Below the pieces are notes generated by a model. The model was not told the origin of the DNA. It saw nothing but the letters and a program-made list of their open reading frames with translations, and did no database searches. The translations under genes were made by a program, and so were the position numbers. Of a DNA stretch of 64,000 bases, positions 1 through 59,873 are shown one piece after another (the first letter of the stretch is position 1; every line of letters begins with the position of its first letter). The DNA lies in assembly GCA_951406725.2 (NCBI GenBank), contig OX597825.1:61504001-61568000 (forward strand), given 5' to 3'. The DNA is from Octopus vulgaris. Lineage: Eukaryota.

Positions 1-847
1 TCATAGAAAGCCTCATCTCACTACCAGGCATAAACCAAGTTGCCTTTCTTTTTCTTTTTTTTTATGTGATTAAAATCAACTTGTTTGGTGTCAGATGGTA
101 TTAAATGAGTATGGTGACAACCATGTGCAGATAATAGACAGATGCACCGTGCCTACCGTGAAATATGGCAGCAGAAGTGTTATACTTTGGGAATGCATGT
201 GTATGGCTGGTGTGGGAGGACTCACATTTATTGAGAGAACAATAGATTCAAGGCTTTATTGTAACATATTGCAGAAAGCAATGTTGAAAAGCATTAAGGA
301 ACTAGGAAGACATTCCATGTTCCAATATGATAATGACCCTAGACACACAATGACAGCTAAGTTTTTATCAGATAAAAAGGTAAAGTTATTACCTTGGCCT
401 ACCATGTCACCTGATTTAAACCCAAGAGAACATCTGTGGGGATTTTTGGAAAGGAAGGTTGAAGAGAAAAAAACCCTGCAATGTAACATAGTTGAAAGAC
501 ATCATTCAAGATGACTGGAGGTCGATTTCATCGGTTATATGTAGAAATTTTGTCGACTCTATGCCCAGAAGATGTAACGCAGTCATTGAAAGCAAAGGCA
601 GTCACACCAAATATTGAATATAGCAAATAATCCTTTAGGGTGTATTTATTTTTGTATCATTTGAAAATTAATATTTCCTTCATATCTTTGAAAATGTTTA
701 TTGTTTGGTGATTCAAATTTGTATAATGTTTGCATGTATAACATATTTTATTCATTATAAATTTCATTTGATTTCCTTTGATATTATCAGAGCAATGGCA
801 ATTTTAATGAAATTGTTTAGGGGTGTACATACTTCTGTGAGATACTA
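1..847 (+). mobile_element. Tc1-family (DD34E) transposon remnant: 3' part of transposase plus right IR/DR end
   Basis: ORF 95..514 has PTVKYG..SV..W, FQYDNDPRH and WPTMSPDLNPREHLW motifs. A frameshifted C-terminus runs to ~617. Tc1-type terminal repeat GGGTGTACATACTTCTGTGAGATACT at ~820-847 with an inner direct-repeat copy at ~637-658. Confidence 0.9.
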
Positions 848-1104
848 TGTGTATGTATGTATGTATGTATGTATGTATGTATGTATGTATGTGTACATGC
901 CTCTTTATGTGTGTGTCTTAGCATTTGTTTATATTTGTACTCTAGAAAGGTTCTAAGCAATGGGTAATTTAGTCGTTGCCACACTTTCAAAAAATCATCT
1001 ACTTACTTTACTATTTCAAGGTCACGTGATACTTTACTTGCCAAACAGGTAAGGGATAGCAACAAGAAGGGCATCCAACTGTAAAAAAATGTTTCGATAA
1101 TACA

Positions 1105-1668
1105 CTGGGTTGTCTGGAAAGTTTGTGCCAATTTTTAAAGGAAAGAAAAAGGTCAATAAATACTTGCCATTACATTTTTAATCAACCAAATATGAACCAT
1201 TTTGTTGCACAATGCGTCTCCATCTTTCCTTTAACTTGAAAATATCCTCTTCCCAGAATTGAAGTGGTTTCATCGCAAAGAATTCATCAAGGTATCTTTT
1301 TACGTCATCCAAGGAATTGAAATCTTTACCATTAAGATTATTCTGCAGAGACCTGAATAAGGGGAAATCCAAAGAAGCAATATCTGGTGAATATGGTGGG
1401 TGGGGTAACACATCCCATCCAAGCTGCAGCAATTTTTGTCTGGTTCCCAAAGCATCAAGTGACGAAAATGAACTTTCTTTTCTCCATTTTAAAGGGTTAC
1501 AGAATTAACACATGTTATAGGAACATAAACCTTCTTCCACGAAAAGATAGCTTAAACTGTACTCTAAATGGAGGTGTAGTCAAATTCTATTTTATGGACC
1601 CAACCATGTTCTAAAATAAGCTGAACGGTAAGCTACTATAAACGGCACAAACTTTCCGGACAACCCAA
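1105..1668 (-). mobile_element. Internally deleted mariner (DD34D) element, copy 1
   Basis: TIRs (T/C)TGGGTTGTC(C/T)GGAAAGTTTGTGCC at both ends, TA at right flank. ORF 1178..1450 encodes GWDVLPHPPYSPDIA.LDF.LFRSLQN; a short N-terminal stub KVHFRHLML is fused upstream. Confidence 0.93.
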
Positions 1669-4320
1669 TATTTTCCAAACTCATGCTAGCATGGAAAAAT
1701 GAATGTAAAAGTGAATGAACAAATGAAATTAGTCAGTCAAAGCTGAGAGTCAAATTGTAAGTTTAGATAAATTCTTCCCATTATGCAAGTTTCTAAAAAA
1801 ATAAAGAAAGAGAACGTTTATTGAATTTCTATGATTGGATTAAGAATGATTGATTGAGAGTTCTGAGATCTGAGGTGACTGCATGCTAAAAGATTTTATC
1901 GAAAGAACAAGAACTATTCAAGATTCATTATACATGATATTTCTTTTGCTTGTTTCAATCATTGGATAGCAGCCATGCAGACAACCAATCTACTTCTGTA
2001 CTTATTTTTCAGCCTGGTGCCTATTCTGTTGGTCTCTTTTGCTGAACTGCTAAGCTGCAGAGATATAAATAACATTAATAGAAAAACCTTCTTGTCAAGG
2101 GTTCCAGATGAGCCTATCTCACAGCATGAAACACAGATGAGAGCAGCAGCATCAAACTCCCTCGTTCACCAAATGCTGCATATCAGAGAAAGTTTCAAAT
2201 AATGATGGTGTAGCACAAGAAATGGTTGTGCCCCAACATGACTGCAGCTTTAAAGTTGAAACAACTTAAAGTGATAAAAGAGAAAATCAGCAGAAGATAT
2301 GAGGGAAAATGGACAGAAAAAAATATTGTAGTCTAAAGTACAGGGAGATCTTGAGAAAGTCATTGAAGGAAAGAGAGGTGCGGAAGGTGGAGGAGGAAAA
2401 AAATTTTAGGAGAGAAAAACAATCAAGACCTGAGGGGTAAGATGAAGATACTGGGAGATATCAGAGAGATAGGGGAAGGAGAAAGAGTAGTGTGTGAAGG
2501 CCAAGACATCTGAGATGGAACGAAGACAATGGTATGTAAGTAGGTTGGTAGGTAGGTAGGTAAGTAGGTAGGAAGATAGGTAAGTAGAGAGGGAGGTAGG
2601 TAGGTAGGTTTAGAGTTGGGGTAAAGCAACAAAGTTGCTGTTGTGATGAAGAAATAGGCTAGCTGGCATCCTAAATGTGTAAGAGTGAGCAATGAGATAA
2701 AGACAAGAAGTGTTGCTGGTAGCTAAATTACGTCCCTTTGCTGACAAAATGCCATCAGATGGCATGGAAGTTGACACCTATATATTCTGTTTTTGGGGGC
2801 ACTCTACCTCTCTTGCCATTTGGGACACTGAGGAGCACAAATTTCTGTTCTGCCTAAGGCACAAACCACATGTGGTTACAGTCTTTCTAATGATGCCTGC
2901 CTAGCCAACTTTTTATCACCATCGTTATAATGATGCCTACTTAATAAATATCAGACCACTGTCATTCTCCTGCTTTATCATAACAATTTGTTTAGCAACT
3001 AATCTTATCACCACAGCCTATGAGAAAATCAACTGTTATGTTACCAACCTTGCTGACACCTGTTATGAATTTGTTACAGTAAGTCCAAGCCATGAACTGA
3101 ATATGTTTTGTGACTAAAATCTCACACACAACACTGCACACATATTTCTGTTACCTTCACAATTTTTGTCTCATAACTAGTTAGCTCTTGCTTGTTATTC
3201 AAAAGGACCCTAGACATTTGGATACTGAATTTCTTACATCATGTAAAAGCTGTGTTTGTACTTTCTATTCTAAATAAATCTTATTTATTATGGTAAACAG
3301 TTTTCACTTTCTTATACACACACAACACACTAAAAGAGTAAGCCATGATAATATGTGCTGTGAGTGATCACGAGATGGGAGATCAGGAAAGAAAATGTCA
3401 GGTGATGAGATGGTTCTCTGGAATTATAATACCATTGTTGCTGATGCTGTCAATATTCTTAGCATTTGGATTTTATCATAATCATCTTAGCTGTGTTCGT
3501 ATCTGTTCATTTATGTTATAGCAATATTTCATTGTTTGTATAACTTTAGGTAAAATACCGAAGCAATAGAAATAATCATTTTAGATTTCTGTTTTATTAA
3601 AAATATTTATCAATATGATCTCTCTTGTTAAAATAATGTGTTTGATCTGAATTGCTGTTGTAATTACACTTCCTTTATCTAATTAATCTTAATGAGTCAG
3701 TGTGAATTGTTTTTTTTCAAAAAACATATTTTCAATCTATGTTTTCATCAGTAAGTCTGTCACCAGAAGATGGTGTTTAGTCACAAAGACTCTGTGAGGT
3801 TATACAGAATCTTCTTCCTATCTCATGGACAAGATTCTTTTAAGGAAGAACGAATAGAAAAAAAGAGAGACGTGGGGGAAGGGAGAGTGAGTGAAGCTAA
3901 TAATAAAGAAAAATTTCATTTTTCAAAGAAATTTATTGCTGTAACTACCTTTAGCACTGATGTTAGTCTCTTTGGCATTTTGCTATAAATCAAATCTTGG
4001 TTGTTTTGATGTTAACGTTCCTTCTGATTAAAACTTTGGTAAACTTCTACCAAATCTACCAAACAGATGTTATGAACTTTTTCATTAATATTTATATAGA
4101 AATTCTTTGATTTATGATTTATCCCTTCCATAAATACAGTTAGTGCTATTTTGGTGGAGCATTAATGGAGGAACAAAGATATCCATTCTCCCCATTCAAA
4201 GCCCAACTTATTCCAATCATTAATAGAAATATTGAATAAAAGGTCTTTTCAACAATAACTCTTTTATTCTCTTGCTCTGCTGATTAATCAACTTGAGTAT
4301 GGATATCCCAACACACACAT

Positions 4321-4354
4321 ATTATTATTATTATTATTTTTATTATTATTACTA

Positions 4355-4407
<53 letters not shown>

Positions 4408-4512
4408 GTTATTATTAACATCATCATCATCACCATTATCATCGTCATCATTCCCATCATCATCATTACTACCATCACCACCACCATCCATAATCATCAT
4501 CACTGTCATCAT
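4321..4512. repeat. (ATT)n/(ATC)n microsatellite
   Basis: Directly visible trinucleotide runs. Confidence 0.95.
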
Positions 4513-4832
4513 GAACAATTTACTGTTGTATGAGCAGGGAGACTCAGTGGTAAATATGCACCGATTCTTACCTAGCCCAATCAGCTGAACATGCCTTCTG
4601 CAACTACATTTGTACTTCCCTGATGGTAGCCTTTTATAGCTCAGTAAACTGGGTTATCATGAAATGTAATATCTTGCTCAAAAGTATGATATACTGCCTG
4701 CTCTGGGAATTGAAACCATGACCTTGCAATCAGGAGTCTAACATTCACCATTAGGTAAGCTTTATATCCAACTAAACATGAATGCCTTATTAGAACATTG
4801 AATATTGTATTATTAACCTTGGGAGGGTTTCT

Positions 4833-5150
4833 TATTTCTTTACTGCCCAGAATTTGAACTCAGAAGGTAGCGGCAGACGAAATACCTTTAAGCATTTCAC
4901 CCGGTGTGCTAACGTTTCTTATTTCTTTACTGCCCACAAGGGGCTACACAAAGGGGACAAACAAGGACAGACAAACGGATTAAGTCAATTATATCGACCC
5001 CAGTACGTAACTGGTACTTATTTAATCGAACCCGAAAGGATGAAAGACAAAGTCAACCTCAGTGGAATTTGAACTCAGAATGTAGCAGCTGACGAAATAC
5101 CACTAAGCATTTCACCCAGCATGCTAACGTTTCTGCCAGTTCACTGCCTT
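4833..5150 (-). mobile_element. tRNA-derived SINE family C (central CCTTTCATCCTTTCGGGGTCGAT domain), composite copy
   Basis: Head GGCAGAAACGTTAGC, B-box GAGTTCAAATTCC and tail GTAAAGAAATA. TSD CCTTGGGAG(G/A)GTTTCT at 4817-4832 and 5151-5166. Confidence 0.88.
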
Positions 5151-5242
5151 CCTTGGGAGAGTTTCTCATATGGGTGGTTGTGTGCACATAAATGCACACA
5201 TAGATCATTGTAGACAACATTCATCTGTCACACAAGCCAGAA

Positions 5243-5288
5243 TTCCCATAGCACATGCTTTTGGCCTTTTAGACTTCATCAGTGGAAA
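5243..5288 (-). ncRNA. Decayed type I hammerhead ribozyme motif
   Basis: Minus strand reads TTTCCA CTGATGA AGTCT AAA AGGCC (A)AAA GCA TG TGC TA TGGGAA. Stems I, II and III can form; G12 is replaced by A. Confidence 0.65.
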
Positions 5289-6015
5289 GCACCATCAGTC
5301 AACACATATTAGTCAAATTTCAGCCTTTTTAAGATGTTGATGTCACAAATAACCAGTAGGCTTATTAAAAATTAATTATTAGTGATGGAAGCTGTATTAA
5401 TACCAAAAGCTAATCTTTATATCCAACTAAGCTTGGCTGCCTTGTTTATATGTATATGCAGTTATATTTAACATGTCCCTGTACACTTGGATATAGAACG
5501 ACCTGCATTGTGGAAAATGTCTAGGGAGAAAAATGCTTCTTATAGACTATGTATGTTGAAACACAGAGAATAATGACACTGGATGATAGATTAGATGTGT
5601 TTCTGCATCATTATCCTTAGTCAGGTACAGACACCTAATCCATCTTTCGCAACCCATTAACAAACAGCCATTCTTATATCTAAAAAGCAAATAATACATT
5701 TGCTGATATGCACAAAGCTTGGTCAAGCTGGAATTTATAAACTAGATATGCATGAAGCAGTGATGATTGAATAGACATGGTTACAATTATATTTATCATG
5801 TTCATATTCACTTGGATATAGAAAGATCTTTGCTATAAAAACTTTTCTCAGGAGAAAAATTCTCCTTATAGGTAATGTGTGAAAACACATCACTGCACCA
5901 TAAATGATATCATCAGACTGCAGAATTCATGCGTTTCTATTTTGGTATGTTTCATTTTCTATGAACAATGAATCCATCGTCCATAGCCCGCAAAGAAACA
6001 ACCATTTTTATATTC

Positions 6016-6596
6016 TTTTCTAATCTAGGCACAAGGCCCGAAATTTTGAGGGATGGGGTTAGTCGATTAGATCAACCCCAGTACACAACTGGTACTTAAT
6101 TTATCGACCCCGAAAGGAGGAAAGGCTTAGTTGACCTTGGCAGAATTTGAACTCAGAATGTAAAGACAGATGAAATACCTATTTCTTTACTACCCACAAG
6201 GGGCTAAACACAGAGAGGCCAAACAAAGACAGACAAATGGATTAAGTCGATTATATCGACCCCAGTGCATAACTGGTACTTATTTAATCGACCACGAAAG
6301 GATGAAAGACAAAGTCGACCTTGGCAGAATTTGAACTCAGAACATAGTGGCAAATGAAATACCTATTTCTTTGCTACACACAAGGGGCTAAACACAGAGA
6401 GGACAAACAAGGACAGACAAATGGATTAAGTCGATTACATCGACCCCAGTGCGTAATTGGTACTTAATTTATCGACTCCGAAAGGATGAAAGGCAAAGTC
6501 AACCTTGGCAGAATTTGAACTCAGAACATAGTGGTAGATGAAATACTGCTAAGCATTTCGCCTGGCAAGCTAACGTTTCTGCCAGCTCGCCACCTT
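6016..6596 (-). mobile_element. SINE family C trimer (one head, three bodies)
   Basis: Three ~180-bp bodies head-to-tail, joined at GAAATA|GGTATTTC. TSD AACCATT(T/C)TTATATTC at 6000-6015 and 6597-6612. Confidence 0.9.
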
Positions 6597-20960: not shown

Positions 20961-21030
20961 TAATGAAGGACAGATGAAATTAAGCCAATGCAGCCAATGT
21001 AAATCTTATAACATTTGAAGCATGTTACAT

Positions 21031-21190
21031 CACCTGATGAAGCTCCTTGCACAGTGCATTGCATCTGATGTCATTATATCATCCTACACCCACTAGGGGA
21101 GCAGTGCAGAACAAAGCCGAAATGATTGTTGTGCTAATAAAGCTTCTAGTTACATTCTGTCTTCTGTATCAAAGATTTAAAGCATACATA
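21031..21190 (+). ncRNA. Decayed HHR with long stem II, followed by AATAAA and (TA)n (PLE pseudo-LTR-like end)
   Basis: CAC CTGATGA AGCT...AGCC GAAA TGATTGTT GTG. Stem III ATGATTGT equals a CpG-decayed palindrome ACGATCGT. Confidence 0.55.
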
Positions 21191-21204
21191 TATATATATA
21201 TATT

Positions 21205-21545
21205 TATAAGACCACCAGCCCTCTTTCACACACACATACATACTCTCTTATACACACACACACCTTCGTGTTGGGGGTCATCTTTACTTTGCTATCTCCC
21301 CTACTTCTTCGCTCTCCTGTGTGACCCTTCTGTCCAGTAGTCGCCATGATAGATCTGTAGCCACTACACGCATTTATTTTCTCTCCTTGTTTCTCTCCTT
21401 GTTTTTTTCTGCGTCCCTTTTGTAGAAGAGCATAGGCTCAAAATGTAAAATACTTTTTCAATTTCCTGAGCATTATACTAATACATCTGTTTGTATTATA
21501 CACCACTCGTCTTCGTCTTTTGTTTTTTTCATGAACTTTCCCCTA
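21205..21545 (+). mobile_element. (TA)n-flanked repeat family with a non-canonical HHR-like motif
   Basis: Homologous to 26275-26375(+) and 40719-40885(-). Motif (C)TGTAGAA GAGC GTAG GCTC GAAA CGT(A/T) AAA. Confidence 0.65.
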
Positions 21546-21596
21546 TATATATAAATATAAAGTAAAAATATTAGGTTTTTTTTCTCTAATTTATAT

Positions 21597-21644
<48 letters not shown>

Positions 21645-21755
21645 CTGCTCACTTAGCCAGCGGGGTGGCATCATTCGAAGGCTAAAACAATGTGAACGCA
21701 TTGTGACCAGCGATGTGTAACAACATCTGATGGTCTGGTCGGTCACGTGATCACA

Positions 21756-21792
<37 letters not shown>

Positions 21793-23250
21793 TTGGATGA
21801 TCAGTATTTATTCTATATAAATGTGAATAATATCTATGTTTAACATGTTAAACTGCCAAAGTTGATTTTCCTTATTTTCTTCTTCTCCTTCAGTTTTATC
21901 AACACTTATATGATATCCCATAAATAATAATAGGTCTTCAAATGGAGTTGTATATGACATATCAGCGATTGTGTGAGATGTATTGTTCCAGCTTCCTTTA
22001 CCACCACCAAAGTGTTCTAACAGTAAGTATTTGATGAATAGGCAAACCAATATCTTCATATCTCTAGCTCTGCTAATTCTATTCATTTGGGAAATATATA
22101 ATTATCAATCAATATATTTAAGCATTGTTATGAAGGTGTGTTTATGATAACATTTATCGACATGTAGAAATACTTGAAAGTTCTAAATTAAAATCATTAA
22201 ATATGCATTCATTTGGGATTATCTATTATGCATTATTTAAGGAATGCATATGAAAAATATTTTTCTCTCCTTAAATTGAATGAACGATAGTGTCATACAT
22301 TCTATTAAATTTGCCTTTTAATCAAATCAATTTAATTATAATGCTGTTACATATTAATTAGTATATGTTTCATAATTTTTCTTTCATTCATCATCTTTAT
22401 TACTAAATACAAAGCATCATTAGCTTGCTAATTGAAGATGTATAGTACCATCTTCAGATTCTAATTTCAAGTATTTGATAAACATTTACTAATTCTATAC
22501 CATCAGGAGTGCACCATTTAACTACCATTTTCGGTTAGAACAACTTTTAGCCACAATATATTACAAGGAGCAAAGATATTGTTATTGTTGTTGTTGTCAT
22601 CATCGTCATCATCATCATCATCCTCATCATCATTCCCTCCATCTTCCTTTTTTCTCCTCCTCTCTTCTTTCCCCTCCTGCTCTACTTCCTATTTTCTTTC
22701 CTCACCCCTCATCCCACTTCCCCTCCTCTCTCTCTCCCTCTCACCCCTCCTATTTTTGACCTCCACCTCTCTTCTTCCCTCTCCTCTCCTCCTCTCCACC
22801 TCTCTTCTGTAAATGTTCATCTTCCATGCTGCCACTGGTTGAACAAGTTGACAGTCTCTGATGGTTCTGAAAAATGCATTGTACTCCAATGTCTCCTTTG
22901 GCATGATTTCCTTTTGTAACCAGATGCACTTTCTAATACCAAAAACCTTATCGAGTGAATAGGAAACTGATTAACATTATATAATGCAAAGGGCAGAAAA
23001 CTGACAGAATCATACACGCCCGCGCATACACACTGGGCATAATACTTTGTGGCATTTCAACCATCTTAATGTTCCGAGTTTAAATTCCACCGAGGTTGAC
23101 TTTGCCTTACATCGTTTCAAGGGTCGGTAAAATAAGTACCAGCTGAACAGTGGGGTCGATGTAATTGATTAATCATCAACCAATATATTTAAATATCGAA
23201 ATATCATTATTTCTAATTCTCTCTAAAGGAGACTACAGCAGCGGTACTGG

Positions 23251-23618
23251 ATATTAATAGTTATCGCCAAGCTAATATGGCAGTCCAGAAAAATAGGATG
23301 AATGCTGCCGTTGATTAGCTCCAAGAAGGCATCGCCTCTAGCTAGCTATGTGACACACAAACCTGTGTCCATTATAACCTTCGAACAGGGGAGGTCAGCA
23401 GCTTTCCCTTGCAGGTCTGGCCCCCACAGACTAATTTCGAGGTGGTTGCCTCTTATCAATGTGGAGTAGCCGAACCTCCCCTGTTTGAAGGTTATAATGG
23501 ACACAGGTTTGTATGTCACATAGCTAGCTAGAGGCGATGGCCTCTTGGAGCTAATCAACAGCAGCATTTGTCCTATTTTTCTGGACTGCCATGTTAGCTT
23601 GGCGATAACTATTAATAT
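23251..23618. mobile_element. Palindromic MITE with ~145-bp arms
   Basis: Arms 23251-23395 and 23474-23618 are near-perfect reverse complements; ends TTAA-TAGTT...AACTA-TTAA. Confidence 0.9.
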
Positions 23619-23780
23619 ATTCAAATATCGTTATGAAGATGTGTTTATGATAACAATTATCAACATATAGAAATACTTAAAAGTACTAAATTAAAATTAT
23701 TATATATGTATACATCTGGGAGTATCTATAATGCATTATTTAAGGAATGCATATGAAAAATATTTTTCTCTCCTTAAATT

Positions 23781-24191
23781 TATTTCTTTATTGCCCACAA
23801 AGGTCTAAACATAGAGGGGACAAACAAGGACAGACAAAGGTATTAAGTTGATTACATCGACCCAGTGCATAACTGGTACTTATTTAATCGACCCCAAAAG
23901 AATGAAAGGCAAAGTTGACCTCAGCTGAATTTGAACTCAAAACATAATGGCAGATGAAATGCCTATTTTATTACTACCCACAAGGGGCTAAACACAGAGG
24001 GGACAAACACGGACAGACAAACGGAGTAAGTTGATTATATCGACCCCAGTGTGTAACTGGTACTTAATTTATCGACCTTGAAAGGATGAAAGGCAAAGTC
24101 AACCTCAGCAGAATTTGAACTCAGAACGTAATGGCAGACGAAATACCACTAAGCATTTCGCTCAGCATCCTAATGATTCAGCTAGCTCGCC
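23781..24191 (-). mobile_element. SINE family C dimer
   Basis: One head and two bodies, junction at ~23963. Interrupts a copy of the segment 22110-22410. Confidence 0.88.
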
Positions 24192-24702
24192 AAATGAATG
24201 ATAGTGTCATGCATTCTATTAAATTTGCCTTTTAATCAAATCAATTTAATTATAATGCTGTTACATATTAAATATGTATGCTTCCTAATTGTTTTTTCAT
24301 TCATCATCTTATTACTAAAGGCATTTATTCCCCCTCCTCTAAAATTGCTGGCCTTGTGCCAAAATTTGAAACCATTATTACTTATTATTAAGGCGACAAA
24401 CTGGCAGAATCGTTAGCCTTTCATCTTTTTGAGGTTGGTTGATGAAATAAGTATCAATTAAGTATCGGGGTTAATGTATTTGACTTGCACCTTCCTTCAC
24501 GATGCTGACTGAAATTTGAAATCAATATTATATAAAGCATTTAATATTCCTGCTTATTTCAACTATGGTATATGTTGTCTCATTTTAGTCTTCCTGGTTT
24601 GCTTTTTTCTAACAGCTAAAACAATACCACAAAAGCCATAGGCACACACATGCTCTTATGCATATGTGTATATTCAGCAAAACCATTCAAGATTGTGCTT
24701 GA

Positions 24703-24909
24703 ACGGCGAGCTGGCAGAAACGTTAGTGCATCGGGCGAAATGCTCAGCGGTATTTCGTCTGTCGATACGTTCTGAGTTCAAATTCCGTCGAGGTCGACTT
24801 TGCCTTTCATCCTTTCGGGGTCGATTAAATAAGTACCAGTTACGCACTGGGATCGATTTAATCTGTTTGTCTGTCCTTGTTTGTCCCCTCTGTGGGTAGT
24901 AAAGAAATA
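24703..24909 (+). mobile_element. SINE family C monomer
   Basis: TSD AAGATTGTGCTTGA. Other monomers at 36453-36680(-), 46519-46746(-), 54680-54880(+) and 61103-61313(-). Confidence 0.9.
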
Positions 24910-25234
24910 AGATTGTGCTTGAGCATGGGTGTAGTTCAATTAGTGGAACAAGTAAAAGATAAAAGATATATATATATAAATATGTGTGTGTGTATGTATT
25001 TATGTGTGTGTGCCTGTGCTTGTCAATGCTGCCATTGTTTGACAACCAATGCCAGTTTGCAGCTTTGTTATGTTGTGGCTTGGCAAAAGAGAGTAATAGG
25101 ATAAGTACTAGGATAAAAAAGAATGAGTCCTGGGATTGATTTCTTATATTAAAAACCCTTTAAGATGATGTTCCAGCATGGCTGCAGTTAAAATGTGTGT
25201 GTGTGTGAATATATATATATATATATATACGAGG

Positions 25235-25533
25235 AAGTTGAAATTGCACAAGGATTTGTTTAGATCTTTTATTTAAAAATTTTTAAAGACCTAACCGGTT
25301 TCAGTGATTTCTCTGATTTTCAAAAGTTGAGAGAGAAAGACATGAAGCTATAGACCAATTTCTTATTCCAATCAGACAAATTTCTAATTCCAATCAGAAG
25401 GAAGGCAGCTGCAGCATAGCTCCACATTTTCTCTCTCTACTTTTGAAAATCAAAGATAATCAGGGAAACTGGTTAAGATTTGTTTAAATTTTTTAATAAA
25501 AAATTTAAATGAATCCCAGTTAACTTTAAACTT
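25235..25533. mobile_element. Diverged inverted-repeat element in (TA)n
   Basis: ~115-bp arms (25235-25351 / 25416-25533), each containing GAAAC(C/T)GGTTA. Confidence 0.7.
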
Positions 25534-25554
25534 ATATATATATATATATATATA

Positions 25555-25785
25555 CCGGAGTAAACACATAAATGTGAAACAAGGTGGAAAAAAGAGTACT
25601 CAAATACCAGTGGTAGAGTAATATGCTTTATTTTAAGCAGCAGAAAATTCAACAAAATCTGTTACTCTGAGTTTCTCGTTGCCGTTCATCAGACAGTTTT
25701 TGCTGAGCGAAAAACTGTCTGATGAACGGCAACGAGAAACTCAGAGTAACAGATTTTGTTGAATTTTCTGCTGCTTAAAATAAAG
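25555..25785. mobile_element. PLE-terminus-like element: perfect 76-bp inverted repeat with a hammerhead on each strand
   Basis: 25626-25701 is the exact reverse complement of 25710-25785. Plus-strand HHR: ACTGT CTGATGA ACG GCAA CGA GAAA CTCAGA GTA ACAG, then AATAAA. Flanked by (TA)n. Confidence 0.85.
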
Positions 25786-26173
25786 TATATATATATATAT
25801 ATATATATATAACCTTGTGGAATAATATAACTTTCTTTTATATGTATGTGTGTGTATGTTTGTGTGTATGTTTGTGTGTGTATGTGTGTGTCTGTCTGTG
25901 TGTATAAAACTTTGTAAGATGTTTTAAAAATTACACTTGTAATGCTCAAGCACAATTTGAATCCCATATATACAACATAGAGATATACTTACCAGATAAT
26001 TGACCCAATGGTTCAATATCTAGAAGGCAAAAATAGGCAAAATCAAAAATATAATTCTAGACCAAATTACTTACATTTAATAAACAGAAGGTAGTACACT
26101 ACGACTGTGTATATATATATATACATATATATGTAGGTCCTGGGTTGAGTCGGGGTTAACCACAGTAAATAAG

Positions 26174-26225
26174 GTACTCCTGATGATTTCTTTTGAATGA
26201 AACAGTTCTAGTCCTGTAGAAGCTC
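26174..26225 (+). ncRNA. Type I hammerhead motif with closed stem III
   Basis: CTGATGA (26180-86) TTTC TTTT GAAT GAAA CAG TTCTAGTC CTG TA. Stem I is weak. Lies within a ~110-bp insert between TA runs. Confidence 0.65.
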
Positions 26226-26432
26226 CTTCTATAAAATAAATATATACATATATATATATATATAAACAGTCTTTAGAGCGTAGGCTCGAAACGTTAAAGA
26301 CTTTTTCACTTCCCAAGTGTTAAACTAATACATCTGTTGTCTACACCACCTGTCTTTGCATTTTGTTTTTTTTTTGTAACCCATGCTAGCATGGAAAGCG
26401 GACGTTAAACAATGATGATGATGATGATGATG

Positions 26433-40711: not shown

Positions 40712-40718
40712 ATGATAT

Positions 40719-40885
40719 AGGGAAAGTTTACGAAAAAAACAAAAGACGAAGATAGGTGGTGTACAAAACAAACAGATGTATTAGTATAATGCTTAGGAAT
40801 AGAAAAAGTATTTTATGTTTCGAGCCTACGCTCTTCTACAGAAAGGGACACAGAAAAAACAAGGAGAGAAATAAGGAGAGAAAAA
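40719..40885 (-). mobile_element. Copy of the non-canonical-HHR repeat family
   Basis: Minus strand reads TGTCCCTTT CTGTAGAA GAGC GTAG GCTC GAAA CATA AAA at 40808-40850; adjacent to a TA tract. Confidence 0.7.
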
Positions 40886-43109
40886 TATGTGTGTAGTGGC
40901 TAACGTATATACACATACATACATATGCTAGTACCAGGTTAAAAGTACCTACCATGCACTGGAAATTTGTTGACATTAGAAAGGGCATCCAGATGTAGAG
41001 ACCAAGTTAAATCAGACTGGAACCTAGTGCAACTCTTCTGCTTGGCATCTCTGGTCAAATCGTCCAAGCCATGCCCTCGTAAAAAATAGATGTTAAAGGA
41101 AGATGATGATGATTATGATGAAAGATGATAATACAACAAGAGGATTCACTTTGATGCCATCCCCCACACCACTTTGCAGAATTCTTCCAGAAGATTACAA
41201 TATTGGTGAAATGTTTCCCATATAAAAGTGAAATGAAGTTCCAAAATTTCCTCTGAAACCAAAGTCTTTTATATTTTGAATGGTCAGTGTATTGAATTTA
41301 GATGATGTATCTAAACTGATGCTGCTATATTATGGAAGAACCATTTTCCCCATCTAAGAATACACATAAATTCTTCTCTTCACTTTTCATTTAGTTTGTG
41401 AGGTGACAAAATTTTTATCGCACCACTACTCTAACCTGGTCATTCACACAATTCCCTTTTGACATCTTATGAAATAAATGTAAAGTGAATATATATCAGG
41501 TTTTGTGTGCTTTTAGGTAGCTAAAATGTCTCTTCTATGATGTAATTGCTATTTTATATAAATTTTGTAGCCATGTGAAAAACGGCTAATAAAACATATT
41601 GACACTTAGTTATAGTGAAAGCTTCCTAATATGTATAGAATATAACACTAATTGAAATGGAAGAGAAATTGAATATCTCAGGTTTGGTTGCCATTGTCTC
41701 TACATATATAAATATATATAATGATGGAAGACAAAATCAGGAGAATGTTGAATAAATATCTTGTAGGTGCAGGAGTTGCTGTGTGGTAAGTAGCCTGCTT
41801 ATCAACCACATGGTTCTGGATTCAGTCCCACTGCATGGCACATGGGGCAAGTGTCTTCTACTATAGTCTCAGTCCGACCAAAGCCATTTGAGTGGATTTG
41901 GTAGACAGAAAGGGAAAGAAGCCTGTCGTATATATGTATATATATATGTGTGTGTGTATATATTTGTGTGTCTGTGCTTGTCCCCCCACCCTCAACATCA
42001 CTTGACAACTGATGCTGGTGTGTTTATGTCACCATAACTTAGCGGTTCGGCAAAAGGGACTGATAGAATAAGAAGTAGGCTTTCAAAGAATAAGTCCTGG
42101 GGTCGATTTGCTCGACTAAAGGGACTGATAGAATAAGAACTAGGCTTACAAAGAATAAGTCCTGGGGGTCGATTTGCTCGACTAAAGCAAATCGACCCCC
42201 AGCATGGCTGCAGTCAAATGACTGAAACAAGTAAAAGAGTAAATGAGTATTTGGTTGTGCTCTTTTGTATTCTCATTTAAAACACTATATCATAGTTCAG
42301 TCCCACTGAGTGACACCTAGAGCATTTATTTTCTAGGATATGCTTGAGTTGATTGCAAATTATGATAGAAATCAGGTTGACCAAAGCTGTAAATGCCTCC
42401 TTAAATGGCATACAGCTGCAATTCTGGAAGTCATTGTATGAAGTTCATTCCACAAGTCTTGAGACCCTTTGAGGAGAGGCATATATAATTGTCCTGGGTT
42501 ATTATAATTGTCTTATATTATTTCTTTACATCTAATAAGCTGACCTGCGATCTATTGTTTTTTTGTTTTGTTTTTTTTTGCTATTCCAGATTGAAGTAGA
42601 TAGCTGTAACAGCACTTCGAACATACTCTGCTAAGTAGTGCTTGCCACAGATTACTAGTTTGCTGAATGCAATCAGAATATGAAGAGAAAAAGAAGATAT
42701 AATGTAAAATGAATTGATGAACAAACAAGTTTTTAAAATGTTACTTCTTTGTTGAAAAAAAAAGGACACATATGAACGTTCAATTTAAAGGCAGGAAACA
42801 AAAGGAAAGGTCACGGTTTCACATTGTAGCAAAACTAGAGGTGGTTTTAAGTTTAACTGTATAGTCTATTTGTAAAGTTAATTGTTAAGTTTAATCATAA
42901 AGTGTATTTGTAAAGTTTAATTGTAAAGTTTAATTGTAAAGGTATTCACGGTTTGTCTCGCAGCGGGGGCGAGATGGCCGTCTCATTTGCATCATAATTA
43001 TGTTCATAATATTATCATTTTCCATTTGTCTTTATGTCCCTGCATGTCAGTTGTATGTCCCTCTGTATTCAGGCCTTGTGCCTATGATAAAGAGAATATG
43101 AAAAGACAA

Positions 43110-43632
43110 TTTGGAAGTTAGGTATGCAAGAAAGTTTTGTAACAGTAAATGTTATAGAAACTTATGAAATGCTCAAGACTGCTTATAAATTAACTTGTAT
43201 GAGCTGAGCATCCGTTTTTCACTGGCACAAGATGACAGGCAAACCAAGTCCACTGGGACGTATATGATTATCCTCTTTTCTGACAGCAAAGGTATCATCT
43301 ACATCCACTGGATTCCCTTTGGCCAGACAGACAATAGAAAGTACTTTGTGGAGGTTTTGAGGGAGTTCAGGAAGAGATTTCCTCAGAAAAGTCCAGAGGG
43401 CATCTGCACAAGTCCACAATTCCATCCTGATAGCTATTTGACAGAGATGGTTATCAAAACTGTCCTTCATTCTCCCTACAGTTCAGACCTTGCTCCCTGT
43501 GACTTCTGGTTGTTCCCCAAGCTGAAGAAGATGAAAGAAGTTGTGACAATTGTTCTGGAGACCTTCCCTTTCGGAGACTTCCATGGAGACTTCACGAAGT
43601 GGTTGGAGCACTACAAGAAGTGCATTGAAATC
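43110..43632 (+). pseudogene. Decayed mariner transposase (distinct, irritans-like family)
   Basis: HWIPFGQT...YFVEVLREFRKR and HSPYSSDLAPCDFWLFPKLK motifs with internal deletions. Confidence 0.85.
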
Positions 43633-45001
43633 TATTGTGGTTAGAGCATGATACCCTCTGATGTGAATAGACATGACCACTACATATAAATAGTAGCAGT
43701 GGGATGTAGTTGGCAGCTCGTAGTTTGGTTTTCGAAGTTCAGGTACAGTTTATAATTACAAACAGATCATCAACCATTGCTATCAATTTATGGATCAAAG
43801 AAAGAGTTACCTACCCATACAACAAACCAACTACAATGTTGGGGTATAATATTACTAAATTACAATTTCAAAAGGCAGATTATTCCATCAAAAATATTGG
43901 TCATGCAGAATGTCTATTGAGACTAATTCCCCAAAATATTGAACCACCAGAAGATATCGTGATATCTGCACTGCATGCAGAAAATGAGATAAAAAGTTTT
44001 ATGACTAATGTTATCCAAGAACCACCAGTGGCTGCACAGGATATAAGAATGAAATCTGTAGGTGATACAAAAAGGAAAGCAGCTTTAATAAAAGCAGCTT
44101 TATTTTGCTTACAAAATAAAAATACAAATTTGAGTAGTTTCTCAACATGCGGTGATATTCTCATGTATGCACAAAGAATTGTAGTGTGCATTTTAAAACC
44201 TTTAAAGAATGGTTGGGTGCATTTTAAAACCTACAGAAATGGTAAAGAAGGCTTGGAGAATGGCCTTGTAACCAAAATAGGAAGTATGATGTACCAAATT
44301 AAAAGACCACACTGGGAACATAGGAGAGACATAGACAAGCTAAAGAAGATACATACTGAAGAATGGAGAGAAATTCCTATGGAAATATTTTTTGATGTAT
44401 TTGATGTCCCAGCAGAGCAAGTAATGGAGTCCTGAAGAATCAGTATGAGAAAATGGAAGCAGACCGAACACCTTGAGATAAGGCCCAAGCAAAAAAGTTA
44501 CTAAAAAATGATAATAACAAACAAAATTTCTTTATTTGAAACTTCAAAAAGGGCATGGCTGTGTGGTTAGGGAGCTTGCTTCCTAGCTACATGGTTTCGG
44601 GTTCAGTCCCACTGCGTGGCACTTTGGGTAGGTGTCTTCTACTATAGCCCCGAGCCGACTGGAGCTTTGTGATTGAATTCGGTAGGCAGGAGTTACTGCC
44701 GTGTGTGTATGTGTGCGTATAGCTGCTCAGTGCCTCTCCGAAAGAGAGAGAGGGGAGATGTTGTAATGAGAGTACAACACCCTCTGACAAGAATAGACAG
44801 GACCACTACATATAAATGGTAGCAGTCTGATGTAGTTGGCAGTTCATAGTTTGGTCTTTGAAGTCCAGGTACAGTTTACAGGTTGAGTTAGTGTGTTGGA
44901 AATATTGATTGTTGGTTCGGTACGTGTTTGTTACTGCCAGTGTATCTATTATGTATAGTTGTGTATTCTTCATCGTCGACAATATCGGCTGTTCTACAAT
45001 A
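43633..45001 (+). mobile_element. Heavily deleted Gypsy-like LTR retrotransposon
   Basis: Direct repeats 43633-43752 and 44759-44878. PPT AAAGAGAGAGAGGGGAGA precedes TGTTGTA; 3' LTR ends TACAATA. Internal TDHQPLLSIYGSKK..LQCWGIILLNYNF and GHAECLLRL (RNase H C-terminus). SINE B fragment at 44550-44715. Confidence 0.8.
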
Positions 45002-50511: not shown

Positions 50512-50862
50512 ATAAATAAATAACAACAGACGGATAATGTGCCAATCCACTACAGCTGTTTCCAATGAATTTTTAATTGATTAATGGAGACATTACATCA
50601 TTAGAAAAATCCGTTTTCATCAGGTGAATACATGAATCAAAACTTTCAAAAACAATCAAAAGTCAATGGGATGAGTACCCCCATGAATCTGTGACCCTTC
50701 CTGAAACTGAACTAACAAATTCAGTCTATAACCAGAATCATAGAGGTGTGCATCCCGTTGAACAGTTTTTTTAATGATGTAATGCCACCCTTAATCAATT
50801 AAAAATTCGTCGGAAATAGCTATAGTGAATTGCCACATTATCATCTGATGTTATTTATTTAT
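50512..50862. mobile_element. Diverged inverted-repeat element with an HHR-like motif
   Basis: ~100-bp arms. Minus strand: ATTCAC CTGATGA ...long stem II... GAAA CAGCTG TA GTGGAT (50545-50629). Confidence 0.7.
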
Positions 50863-58957: not shown

Positions 58958-59873
58958 AAACAATACTGGGAGGATAAGAGACGGAACGAAGCGAAAATTC
59001 GAACGAACCCGACGCGAAGCGCTGTCAGACAATAGTGTAATAAATAAAATATATGCATACATACAAACATATATGTACGTACCGACATCTACATGTATAT
59101 ATACATGCATATATAAATATATATACGGACAGGACACCACAAAAAGACGTAAAACTCAACACAAACGAAAACGGAAAAGCCATTTTGTTACAACAGAAAG
59201 ACAGAGACGTGGAACAGGACGAGAACGAAAACAGGAAAAACATTATTTACAACAGAAAAACAAGGTACAGGACATGCTACACAAGAAAAAATCCCCTTCA
59301 TCAGCTGTCACTAGTAGACTTAGCGTGTTTCGAAGGCAAGACAGGACACGACTCGTCAATACTAGGCCTTCCTGCGAGAGAATTAAAATAAAATAACCTC
59401 GCAGAGGGGTAAAGCAAGCACGAAAAAAATGTAACACAAACGGGACGTAACAATAGAACTGCACAATAAAATACAAGATAAAAATACAAAATTAAAAATA
59501 CATGTACAAGAAAATACAAAACGAGAAATAAAATACAATACGAGAAATCAAAATAAACAAGAAAACAAACGAAAAAAACAAACGAAAGGCCTTTGTTCTG
59601 GCTGGGACGGAAGAGGTACTGGCGAGCGCAGGGAAACAGGACCTTACGGCCTGAAAGCAACGTGCAAAAGGATTAGCAGTGACGAAAGTGAGGAGGAGTG
59701 AGAGAGAGAGGGATAGAGGAAGACACGCGGCTGAGAGAAGGATGAGGAAGAGGGAGAGAGAGAGGAAGGTAAAGCAAAGGGAGAGAATTTCGCGTCATAA
59801 TTATATTATAAAACAATACTTGGAGGATAAGAGACGGAACGAAGCGAAAATTCGAAAATTCGAACGAACCCGA
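58955..59873. mobile_element. CpG-rich element bounded by ~58-bp direct repeats, embedded in TA tracts
   Basis: ATAAAACAATACT(G/T)GGAGGATAAGAGACGGAACGAAGCGAAAATTCGAACGAACCCGA at 58955-59012 and 59808-59873. Confidence 0.7.

Follow-up and report, generated by a model that had tools for sequence, protein, structure and literature searches.

Short elements that combine a hammerhead-type ribozyme motif with TA tracts lie crowded within about 5 kb of the Octopus vulgaris genome, raising the question of whether they are independent mini-elements or the debris of larger ones. We analysed the 64-kb stretch around them (contig OX597825.1, positions 61504001–61568000; hereafter ‘the window’), for which a sequence-only reading had proposed a radiation of non-autonomous elements seeding introns with cleavage sites, polyadenylation signals and double-stranded RNA (dsRNA). 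Our analysis indicates that the cluster is very probably a pile-up of 3′ ends—pseudo-long terminal repeat (pLTR) remnants—of several Penelope-like element (PLE) families in TA-rich DNA, and that its mirrored copies likely stem from two separately primed cDNAs at one cut target.

Hammerhead-type ends and their parent elements

All hammerhead calls rest on our own motif descriptors and on family comparisons. The genome searched was the 2.8-Gb assembly (about 30 large contigs), from which 80 evenly spaced 10-kb pieces, 800 kb in total, served as a sample. Within the window, which is AT-rich and dense in microsatellites, a loose type-I hammerhead descriptor returned five matches (mean 0.53, maximum 2 in 30 shuffles) and a stricter one including core variants returned three (mean 0.27, maximum 1). 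The strict descriptor matched 29 times in the 800-kb sample as compared to 0, 0 and 1 in three shuffles, and (TA)4 lay at most 130 nt downstream of 16 of these 29 matches, against a background of 0.146. Both the hammerhead motifs and their association with TA tracts are thus real, as had been proposed. The notion of a special cluster did not survive: intact motifs occur at 47 per Mb in the window (3 in 64 kb) and at 36 per Mb in the genome (29 in 800 kb), that is, at ordinary background density. Locally, the three intact window motifs are piled up, all of them within 5.3 kb; several motifs, in separate or paired copies, also occur together in four of the 10-kb samples.

Between 21.0 and 26.4 kb we distinguished six hammerhead-type families (E1, E2, E4, E5, E6 and E7) plus a truncated second E2-type copy, E2b, bearing out the earlier count of at least five unrelated elements; E7 (23195–23620) had been missed. 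An Rfam scan of the window at E ≤ 5 yielded repeat-driven miRNA models, but neither a hammerhead nor any other ribozyme. Folding of single motifs gave no significant z-score except for E7 (−2.27), as is expected of dimer-type hammerheads. Two families proved most informative:

E5, 25555..25787, no single strand: head-to-head ends of a putative Hydra-type PLE; minus arm with a ~70-nt tail, plus arm ending in AATAAAG-(TA)n; intact cores at 25692 (−) and 25719 (+).
E6, 26134..26243, plus strand: internally deleted mirror of a second putative Hydra-type family, in which part of the tail, inverted, is fused to a single arm; core at 26180; 5′ strand of stem I mostly lost.

The window itself holds no detectable PLE open reading frame (ORF): seven PLE protein pieces gave no tblastn match, and reverse transcriptase (RT) or GIY-YIG signatures were found in 0 of 93 frames. 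This agrees with the sequence-only reading, which saw no RT ORF attached. Elsewhere in the genome, relatives of E2, E5 and E6 continue into PLE ORFs. E5 is a young family of near-identical copies (99–100%), whose parent was reached via a 130-nt native upstream flank. Its upstream sequence runs into an ORF with a CxCx5C linker at 8 of 20 loci, as judged from the printed frames (the L308–L310 piece, L312, L314, L316, L319, L320 and L322), and an ORF search upstream of the E5-type loci L025 and L026 met host-like exons only. The parental linker reads CNCQNESSC, with CKLC..CRH (CxxC, CxH) and, by eye, no CCHH. E6, for which exact pattern matches numbered 1,578 plus 129, leads upstream to an ORF with RT and endonuclease (EN) at L378–L380 and L383; it carries CDLC..CMH (CxxC, CxH), again without CCHH by eye, and the linker of copy L380 shows only the second and third cysteines. 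The ORFs linked to both ends are partial.

Judged by the features listed in section 11 of Craig 2021 (PMC8557442), the E5 and E6 parents would be Hydra-type PLEs. As described there, Hydra-clade elements and both families have in common a C-terminal GIY-YIG-type EN lacking CCHH, with CxxC and CxH around E/N, as well as a hammerhead near the 3′ end and (TA)n targets; the CxCx5C linker is common to the clade and the E5 parent. The same source lists Hydra-1_Obim, an octopus element that prefers (TA)n and carries a hammerhead. The expectation that such elements are undescribed in cephalopods hence fails for the type but stands for these families, since the E5 and E6 hammerheads are absent from the consulted portion of the Craig 2021 supplement. 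RT plus GIY-YIG in one ORF tied to the terminus, as in EN-bearing (EN+) PLEs, applies to E2, E5 and E6 and was not found for E1, E4 and E7. The proposed PLE origin, the targeting of microsatellites and the diversity of families are supported. The proposed non-autonomous radiation is mostly unsupported, given that E2, E5 and E6 are truncated ends of ORF-bearing Neptune- or Hydra-type elements and only E7 looks non-coding.

Several side observations concern these two families. A second PLE ORF (CxxxxCxxC linker, GIY-YIG) is nested between two E6 arms at L381:~700–5000 (−). An E5-related subfamily (L002, L069, L282) has the core CCGACGA (U4C) instead of CUGAUGA. E5 words (25553–25790) recur near-identically in sequencing runs of seven organisms, so the family is either common to relatives or has moved between them. 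The tblastn matches of ‘HydE6b’ residues 1–27 to E6 loci were dropped as an artefact, the inverted arm opening that frame.

Mirrored pairs, their junctions and the number of cDNAs

E5 and E6 pairs, drawn from search-picked loci rather than a census, were counted after removal of duplicate loci. In 108 of 110 head-to-head pairs one arm was tailed and the other untailed (E5 33/33, E6 75/77). This rule held over pair spans of 0.1–7 kb, with a tail of 65–70 nt, and short/short pairs were absent (0/110). The two E6 exceptions comprised one unclassified pair and one long+long pair. Two E5 mirrors in the unselected 800 kb followed the rule, as did E5 and E7 in the window.

The commonest junction lay just 5′ of hammerhead stem I; a 5-nt loop forms it in E5, and either such a loop or a perfect AGCT centre in E6. 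On contig C1, counted by hand, 15 E6 pairs had a perfect AGCT centre and 7 an asymmetric one, as compared to 12 with wider spacing. TATAAAT begins 29 nt upstream of the AGCTTC junction point in 4/4 E6 parent loci, and five E6 arms end at AGCTTC beside non-palindromic partners (L405, L406, L408, L409, L411). Relative to the tail, the loop pointed either way: 16:12 in E6 (28 of 30 centre-pattern loci being scorable at both ends; p 0.57) and 9:7 in E5. The two arms of a locus often carried the same variants (for example at L367 and L398), an observation that was not tallied. Neither the strict long/short rule nor the stem-I junction was found in the literature searched.

It is improbable that, as the sequence-only reading saw them, the mirrors of ~200 nt represent non-autonomous palindromes of fixed form that are copied as a unit. 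Near-identical copies would fit such copying, as would the exact recurrence of one asymmetric E6 centre 129 times and of the E5 centre in 15 of 27 mirrors. A whole-unit copy should, however, preserve the orientation of the loop, which lies both ways relative to the tail, and two priming sites should also give short/short copies. Moreover, many other junctions, along with pairs spanning 0.3–7 kb and containing ORF pieces, obey the same rule, and the arms match the 3′ ends of the parents.

Somewhat less unlikely, but still not what we expect, is the self-copying route proposed for rotifer PLEs, in which a palindrome lets a single cDNA (or an antisense RNA) fold back and serve as its own template, the loop being inverted or one arm trimmed afterwards. 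Junction palindromes have been interpreted as self-priming (in the cited part of PMC3846280), and both asymmetric centres amount to the 5-nt loops that fold-back would yield. Yet a short cDNA cannot provide a second arm with a tail, and the short arm carries the native loop in 7/16 E5 and 16/28 E6 cases, so that frequent later flipping would be required in very young copies. Because the loop lies either way and fold-back adds no tail, we favour two separately primed cDNAs.

How might two cDNAs meet? A PLE protein would cut both strands of (TA)n; one target end would prime a cDNA at an inner start site, after AATAAA, and the other at an outer site, the end of the tail. Both cDNAs would extend 5′-ward through the uncleaved hammerhead and be joined via short self-complementary ends, AGCT in E6 and CTAG with TT/AA in E5. 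More tentatively, the junction hot spot may mark the 5′ end of the RNA, that is, a transcription start in the upstream pLTR, in which case the minimal mirrors would be run-off products. E7 would likely be a non-coding repeat mobilised by the same machinery. The ingredients have published counterparts: in the cited sections, the PLE protein of an anole cuts both strands and extends them, with two in-vitro RT start sites bounding the tail and uncleaved RNA acting as template (PMC11167929), and Penelope transcripts begin within the upstream pLTR (PMC2377424).

Several observations weigh against the two-cDNA scheme. The long+long pair (L378, arms 4.2 kb apart) contradicts the rule, and the E6 search pattern requires AGCTTC and is blind to arms that stop further 3′. 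The two start sites come from a Poseidon-clade protein, not a Hydra one. E5 lacks a conserved TATA box at the distance seen in E6, which speaks against an RNA 5′ end at the junction. The run-off idea needs a tandem template, so the lack of any tail running into an ORF start (0/61 E6 and 0/39 E5 tail ends, at loci not picked for full-length copies) counts against it. As to the wider assignment of the cluster to PLEs, no PLE ORF was linked to E1 in 25 loci and no parent ORF to E4, two loci of which carry Hydra-like remnants downstream.

Instead of an RNA 5′ end, the junction hot spot could mark a place next to stem I where RT stalls or where annealing occurs through short palindromes. We regard this as quite possible, if slightly disfavoured; it would replace one step and is compatible with two separately primed cDNAs. 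Two same-sense cDNAs could pair only at self-complementary words, and AGCT and CTAG are located there; the missing TATA box in E5 and tandem template point the same way. Against it, arms stop at AGCTTC even where the partner is non-palindromic, and E6 keeps its TATA spacing.

Much of the architecture is familiar from EN+ PLEs, which share with the window families a hammerhead in the terminal repeat and an inverted 5′-truncated copy with a one-sided tail. As far as the cited parts go, inverted 5′-truncated copies, one-sided tails and (TA)n bias are in print (PMC8557442), as are opposite-strand hammerhead pairs and U3-A8 cores in other animals (PMC4209133) and junction palindromes (PMC3846280), all of them, with PMC11167929, describing head-to-head traits like those seen here. 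The mirrored forms noted earlier are present in E4, E5 and E7, but are not undescribed as such. Differences lie in the tail, given in these sources as 30–40 bp and ‘optional’ or ‘often at one end’, whereas ours measures 65–70 nt and is near-strictly confined to one arm; furthermore, the Hydra-clade account of PMC8557442, so far as consulted, contains neither a predominance of minimal mirrors among junctions nor the long/short rule.

Neptune-type ends and other repeats of the window

The E2 family contributes three copies, all decayed or truncated:

E2, 21209..21545, plus strand: 5′-truncated 3′ untranslated region of a putative Neptune-type PLE; core at ~21420; decayed (C3 lost, G12 to A).
E2b, 26262..26380, plus strand: E2-related end, cut off inside the core.
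Second E2-family copy, 40712..40905, minus strand: 88.5% identical to E2.

Elsewhere in the genome, E2 relatives run upstream into a PLE ORF, with the motif 0.3–1.0 kb behind the ORF at 23 of 30 loci. Pfam assigned RVT_1 (E 3.8e-8) to the 974-aa parent ORF, followed by a CxxxxCxxC linker and a sub-threshold GIY-YIG match (E 0.0055); three short ORF pieces gave no Pfam match. The linker, CSRPRCRTC, precedes YCISC..YIGQT, that is, CX2-5CxxC before a C-terminal GIY-YIG. RT, this linker, a GIY-YIG with CCHH-type residues and TA targeting are common to the E2 parent and Neptune-clade PLEs (Arkhipova 2006, as described in the cited part of PMC8557442). The parent is hence probably a Neptune-type PLE, the clade name resting on motifs; Nematis has the same linker. 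The family is abundant, with 16,485 candidates in the protein search and 17 matches of the E2 end per 800 kb.

What sets E2 apart from Neptune-clade PLEs is its core. Across 86 copies we tallied C3 in 82, U4 in 85, G5 in 82, U6 in 85, G8 in 81, A9 in 83, an extra A in 84 and GAAA in 78, with N7 free (A35 U23 G17 C11) and a palindromic ACGU stem III. The variability of N7 fixes the register and thereby identifies an A6U variant (CUGU-N-GA plus an extra A) in 85/86. A natural A6U hammerhead core was not found in the literature searched, with Lunse 2017, which may cover A6U, lying outside that comparison; A6C is a known natural variant (Perreault 2011, cited part).

The remaining hammerhead-type repeats, and one element without a hammerhead, are as follows:

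E1, 20996..21185, plus strand: 3′ end of an older repeat; type-I hammerhead with a ~78-nt stem II region, core at 21034; AATAAA, then TA.
E3, 21641..21758, plus strand: 3′ half of a tRNA-headed short interspersed nuclear element (SINE) between TA tracts; no hammerhead.
E7, 23195..23620, no single strand: head-to-head retrozyme-like pair; long minus arm with a U3-A8 hammerhead core at 23459 and a tail, short plus arm (23474–23618) without core.
E4, 25233..25535, no single strand: decayed head-to-head pair between TA tracts; cores at 25323 (−) and 25443 (+); UUGAAAA (U3-A8); ACCGGU stem III.
Type-I hammerhead remnant, 5206..5310, minus strand: core at 5282; G12 to A; 0 matches in 800 kb.
Head-to-head pair, 50513..50861, no single strand: long-stem-II hammerhead core at 50623 (−); plus arm decayed.
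SGC-order hammerhead repeat end (candidate), 59251..59400, minus strand: core at 59304; predicted cut after 59345 (GUC site); stems I/II/III of 5/4/5 bp.

The single ‘TA–hammerhead–AATAAA–TA’ grammar suggested for these elements dissolved on comparison: AATAAA is present in E1, E4, E5 and E6 but absent from E2, E2b, E7 and the 5.2- and 40.8-kb copies, E1 and E7 lack the 5′ TA tract, and 21641–21758, counted as a member, turned out to be a SINE 3′ end. This E3 piece has 2988 candidates; upstream of a relative at L113 lies a putative tRNA-type A/B-box head. A hepatitis delta virus-like ribozyme, considered by eye for E3, was rejected because the piece is a SINE end.

E1 counts 384 candidates at 82–89% identity, with CUGAUGA in 14/26 and GAAA in 23/26 cores. 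E4 is an old, variably mirrored family with UUGAAAA in 9/9 scorable copies of an anchored tally, which replaced a wider, unspecific one (239 rows). Upstream of the E4 core at L085, L095, L099 and L101 lie CCAAT-like words and, ~80 nt away, a TATAAAA box, which may be the promoter of the family.

E7 looks like a non-coding retrozyme-like repeat, judging from motifs and joins. Its copies carry UUGAUAA in 19/20, CUAG in 18/20 and GUC in 20/20, stem III is palindromic, units are joined tail-to-head in several of the 20 loci and no PLE ORF occurs near it in those 20; core and tandem joins led us to reject 23251–23618 as a miniature inverted-repeat transposable element. With metazoan non-LTR retrozymes, as given in the cited parts of PMC7229834 and bioRxiv 10.64898/2026.07.22.740005, where retrozymes are already treated as PLE derivatives, E7 shares a size of a few hundred nt, lack of coding capacity, head-to-tail joins, a type-I hammerhead and a palindromic stem III. 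It differs by its U3-A8 minimal-type core and by forming mostly partial tandems and inversions (20 loci), not long arrays.

The motif at 59.3 kb is a candidate type-SGC hammerhead, a form whose blocks are permuted non-circularly. An S-G-C descriptor matched once in the window and three times in 800 kb (two of the same family, one T-rich and likely chance), against 0, 0, 0, 0 and 2 in shuffles. Block order (cleavage site, GAAA, CUGAnGA, with stems I–III) agrees with the type-SGC hammerheads of Eckert 2023 (PMC10085705), and stem I pairs through different sequences in three copies (the 59.3-kb motif, L206 and L244), in line with co-variation. According to the cited part of that study, type-SGC motifs come from metatranscriptomes, with none in genomes of known organisms save one GCS candidate; ours differs as a dispersed genomic repeat end with predicted cleavage. 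A direct repeat flanks it, near 58960–59010 and 59810–59870.

Further repeats include Tc1/mariner-type transposase remnants (DDE_3, Transposase_1) at 74–511 and 43189–43641 (+), and a very abundant SINE-like repeat at 6061–6546, 23070–23165, 23794–24191 and 24705–24910, partly in 184-bp tandems, of which 24033–24191 and 24705–24863 form an inverted pair (83%). By eye, a local AT-rich stretch is doubled (22090–22400 and 23620–23790/24195–24320), the second copy being interrupted by SINE insertions.

Host effects and biological meaning

Could the host have retained these elements for the cleavage sites, polyadenylation signals or editing substrates that they bring? We consider this very doubtful. 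Mirrors would make long perfect dsRNA if transcribed, and four families carry AATAAA, but the density of the window equals the genome background, decay or truncation affects most copies, the window yielded no host gene, and cleavage by minimal PLE hammerheads is weak in vitro (PMC4209133, cited part). None of the 93 window frames holds a host exon, leaving the intron location unsupported. The seeding of cleavage sites is weakly supported as well, most window copies having damaged cores or stems. A transcript across the mirrored E5 is predicted to form a single hairpin of ~85 bp (z −23.9, −152.7 kcal/mol), which would plausibly hide both ribozymes and give dsRNA if transcribed. No host function is needed to explain the cluster: it is ordinary PLE debris at ordinary density that shows a mechanistically useful regularity and includes two hammerheads of unusual form.

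Quite possibly, though this is a tentative proposal, the mirrors document throughout the genome a mode of PLE integration not yet shown in vivo: a dimer of one protein would prime two cDNAs, each starting at a different RT site and on a different side of a TA break, and both would run off at a transcription start on the first base of stem I, leaving fixed palindromes of ~200 nt by the thousands. The same genome would also hold A6U hammerheads in a very high-copy Neptune family and SGC-wired ones in another repeat end. The origin of inverted PLE ends is described as an open point in the cited parts of PMC8557442 and PMC11167929. The long/short rule, the fixed junction and the tail-independent loop turn it into countable predictions that separate the joining of two cDNAs from fold-back, in young families with intact parents. 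Extrapolated from 800 kb, hammerhead-type motifs in the octopus genome would number ~10^5, alongside thousands of perfect hairpins that might supply dsRNA in bulk.

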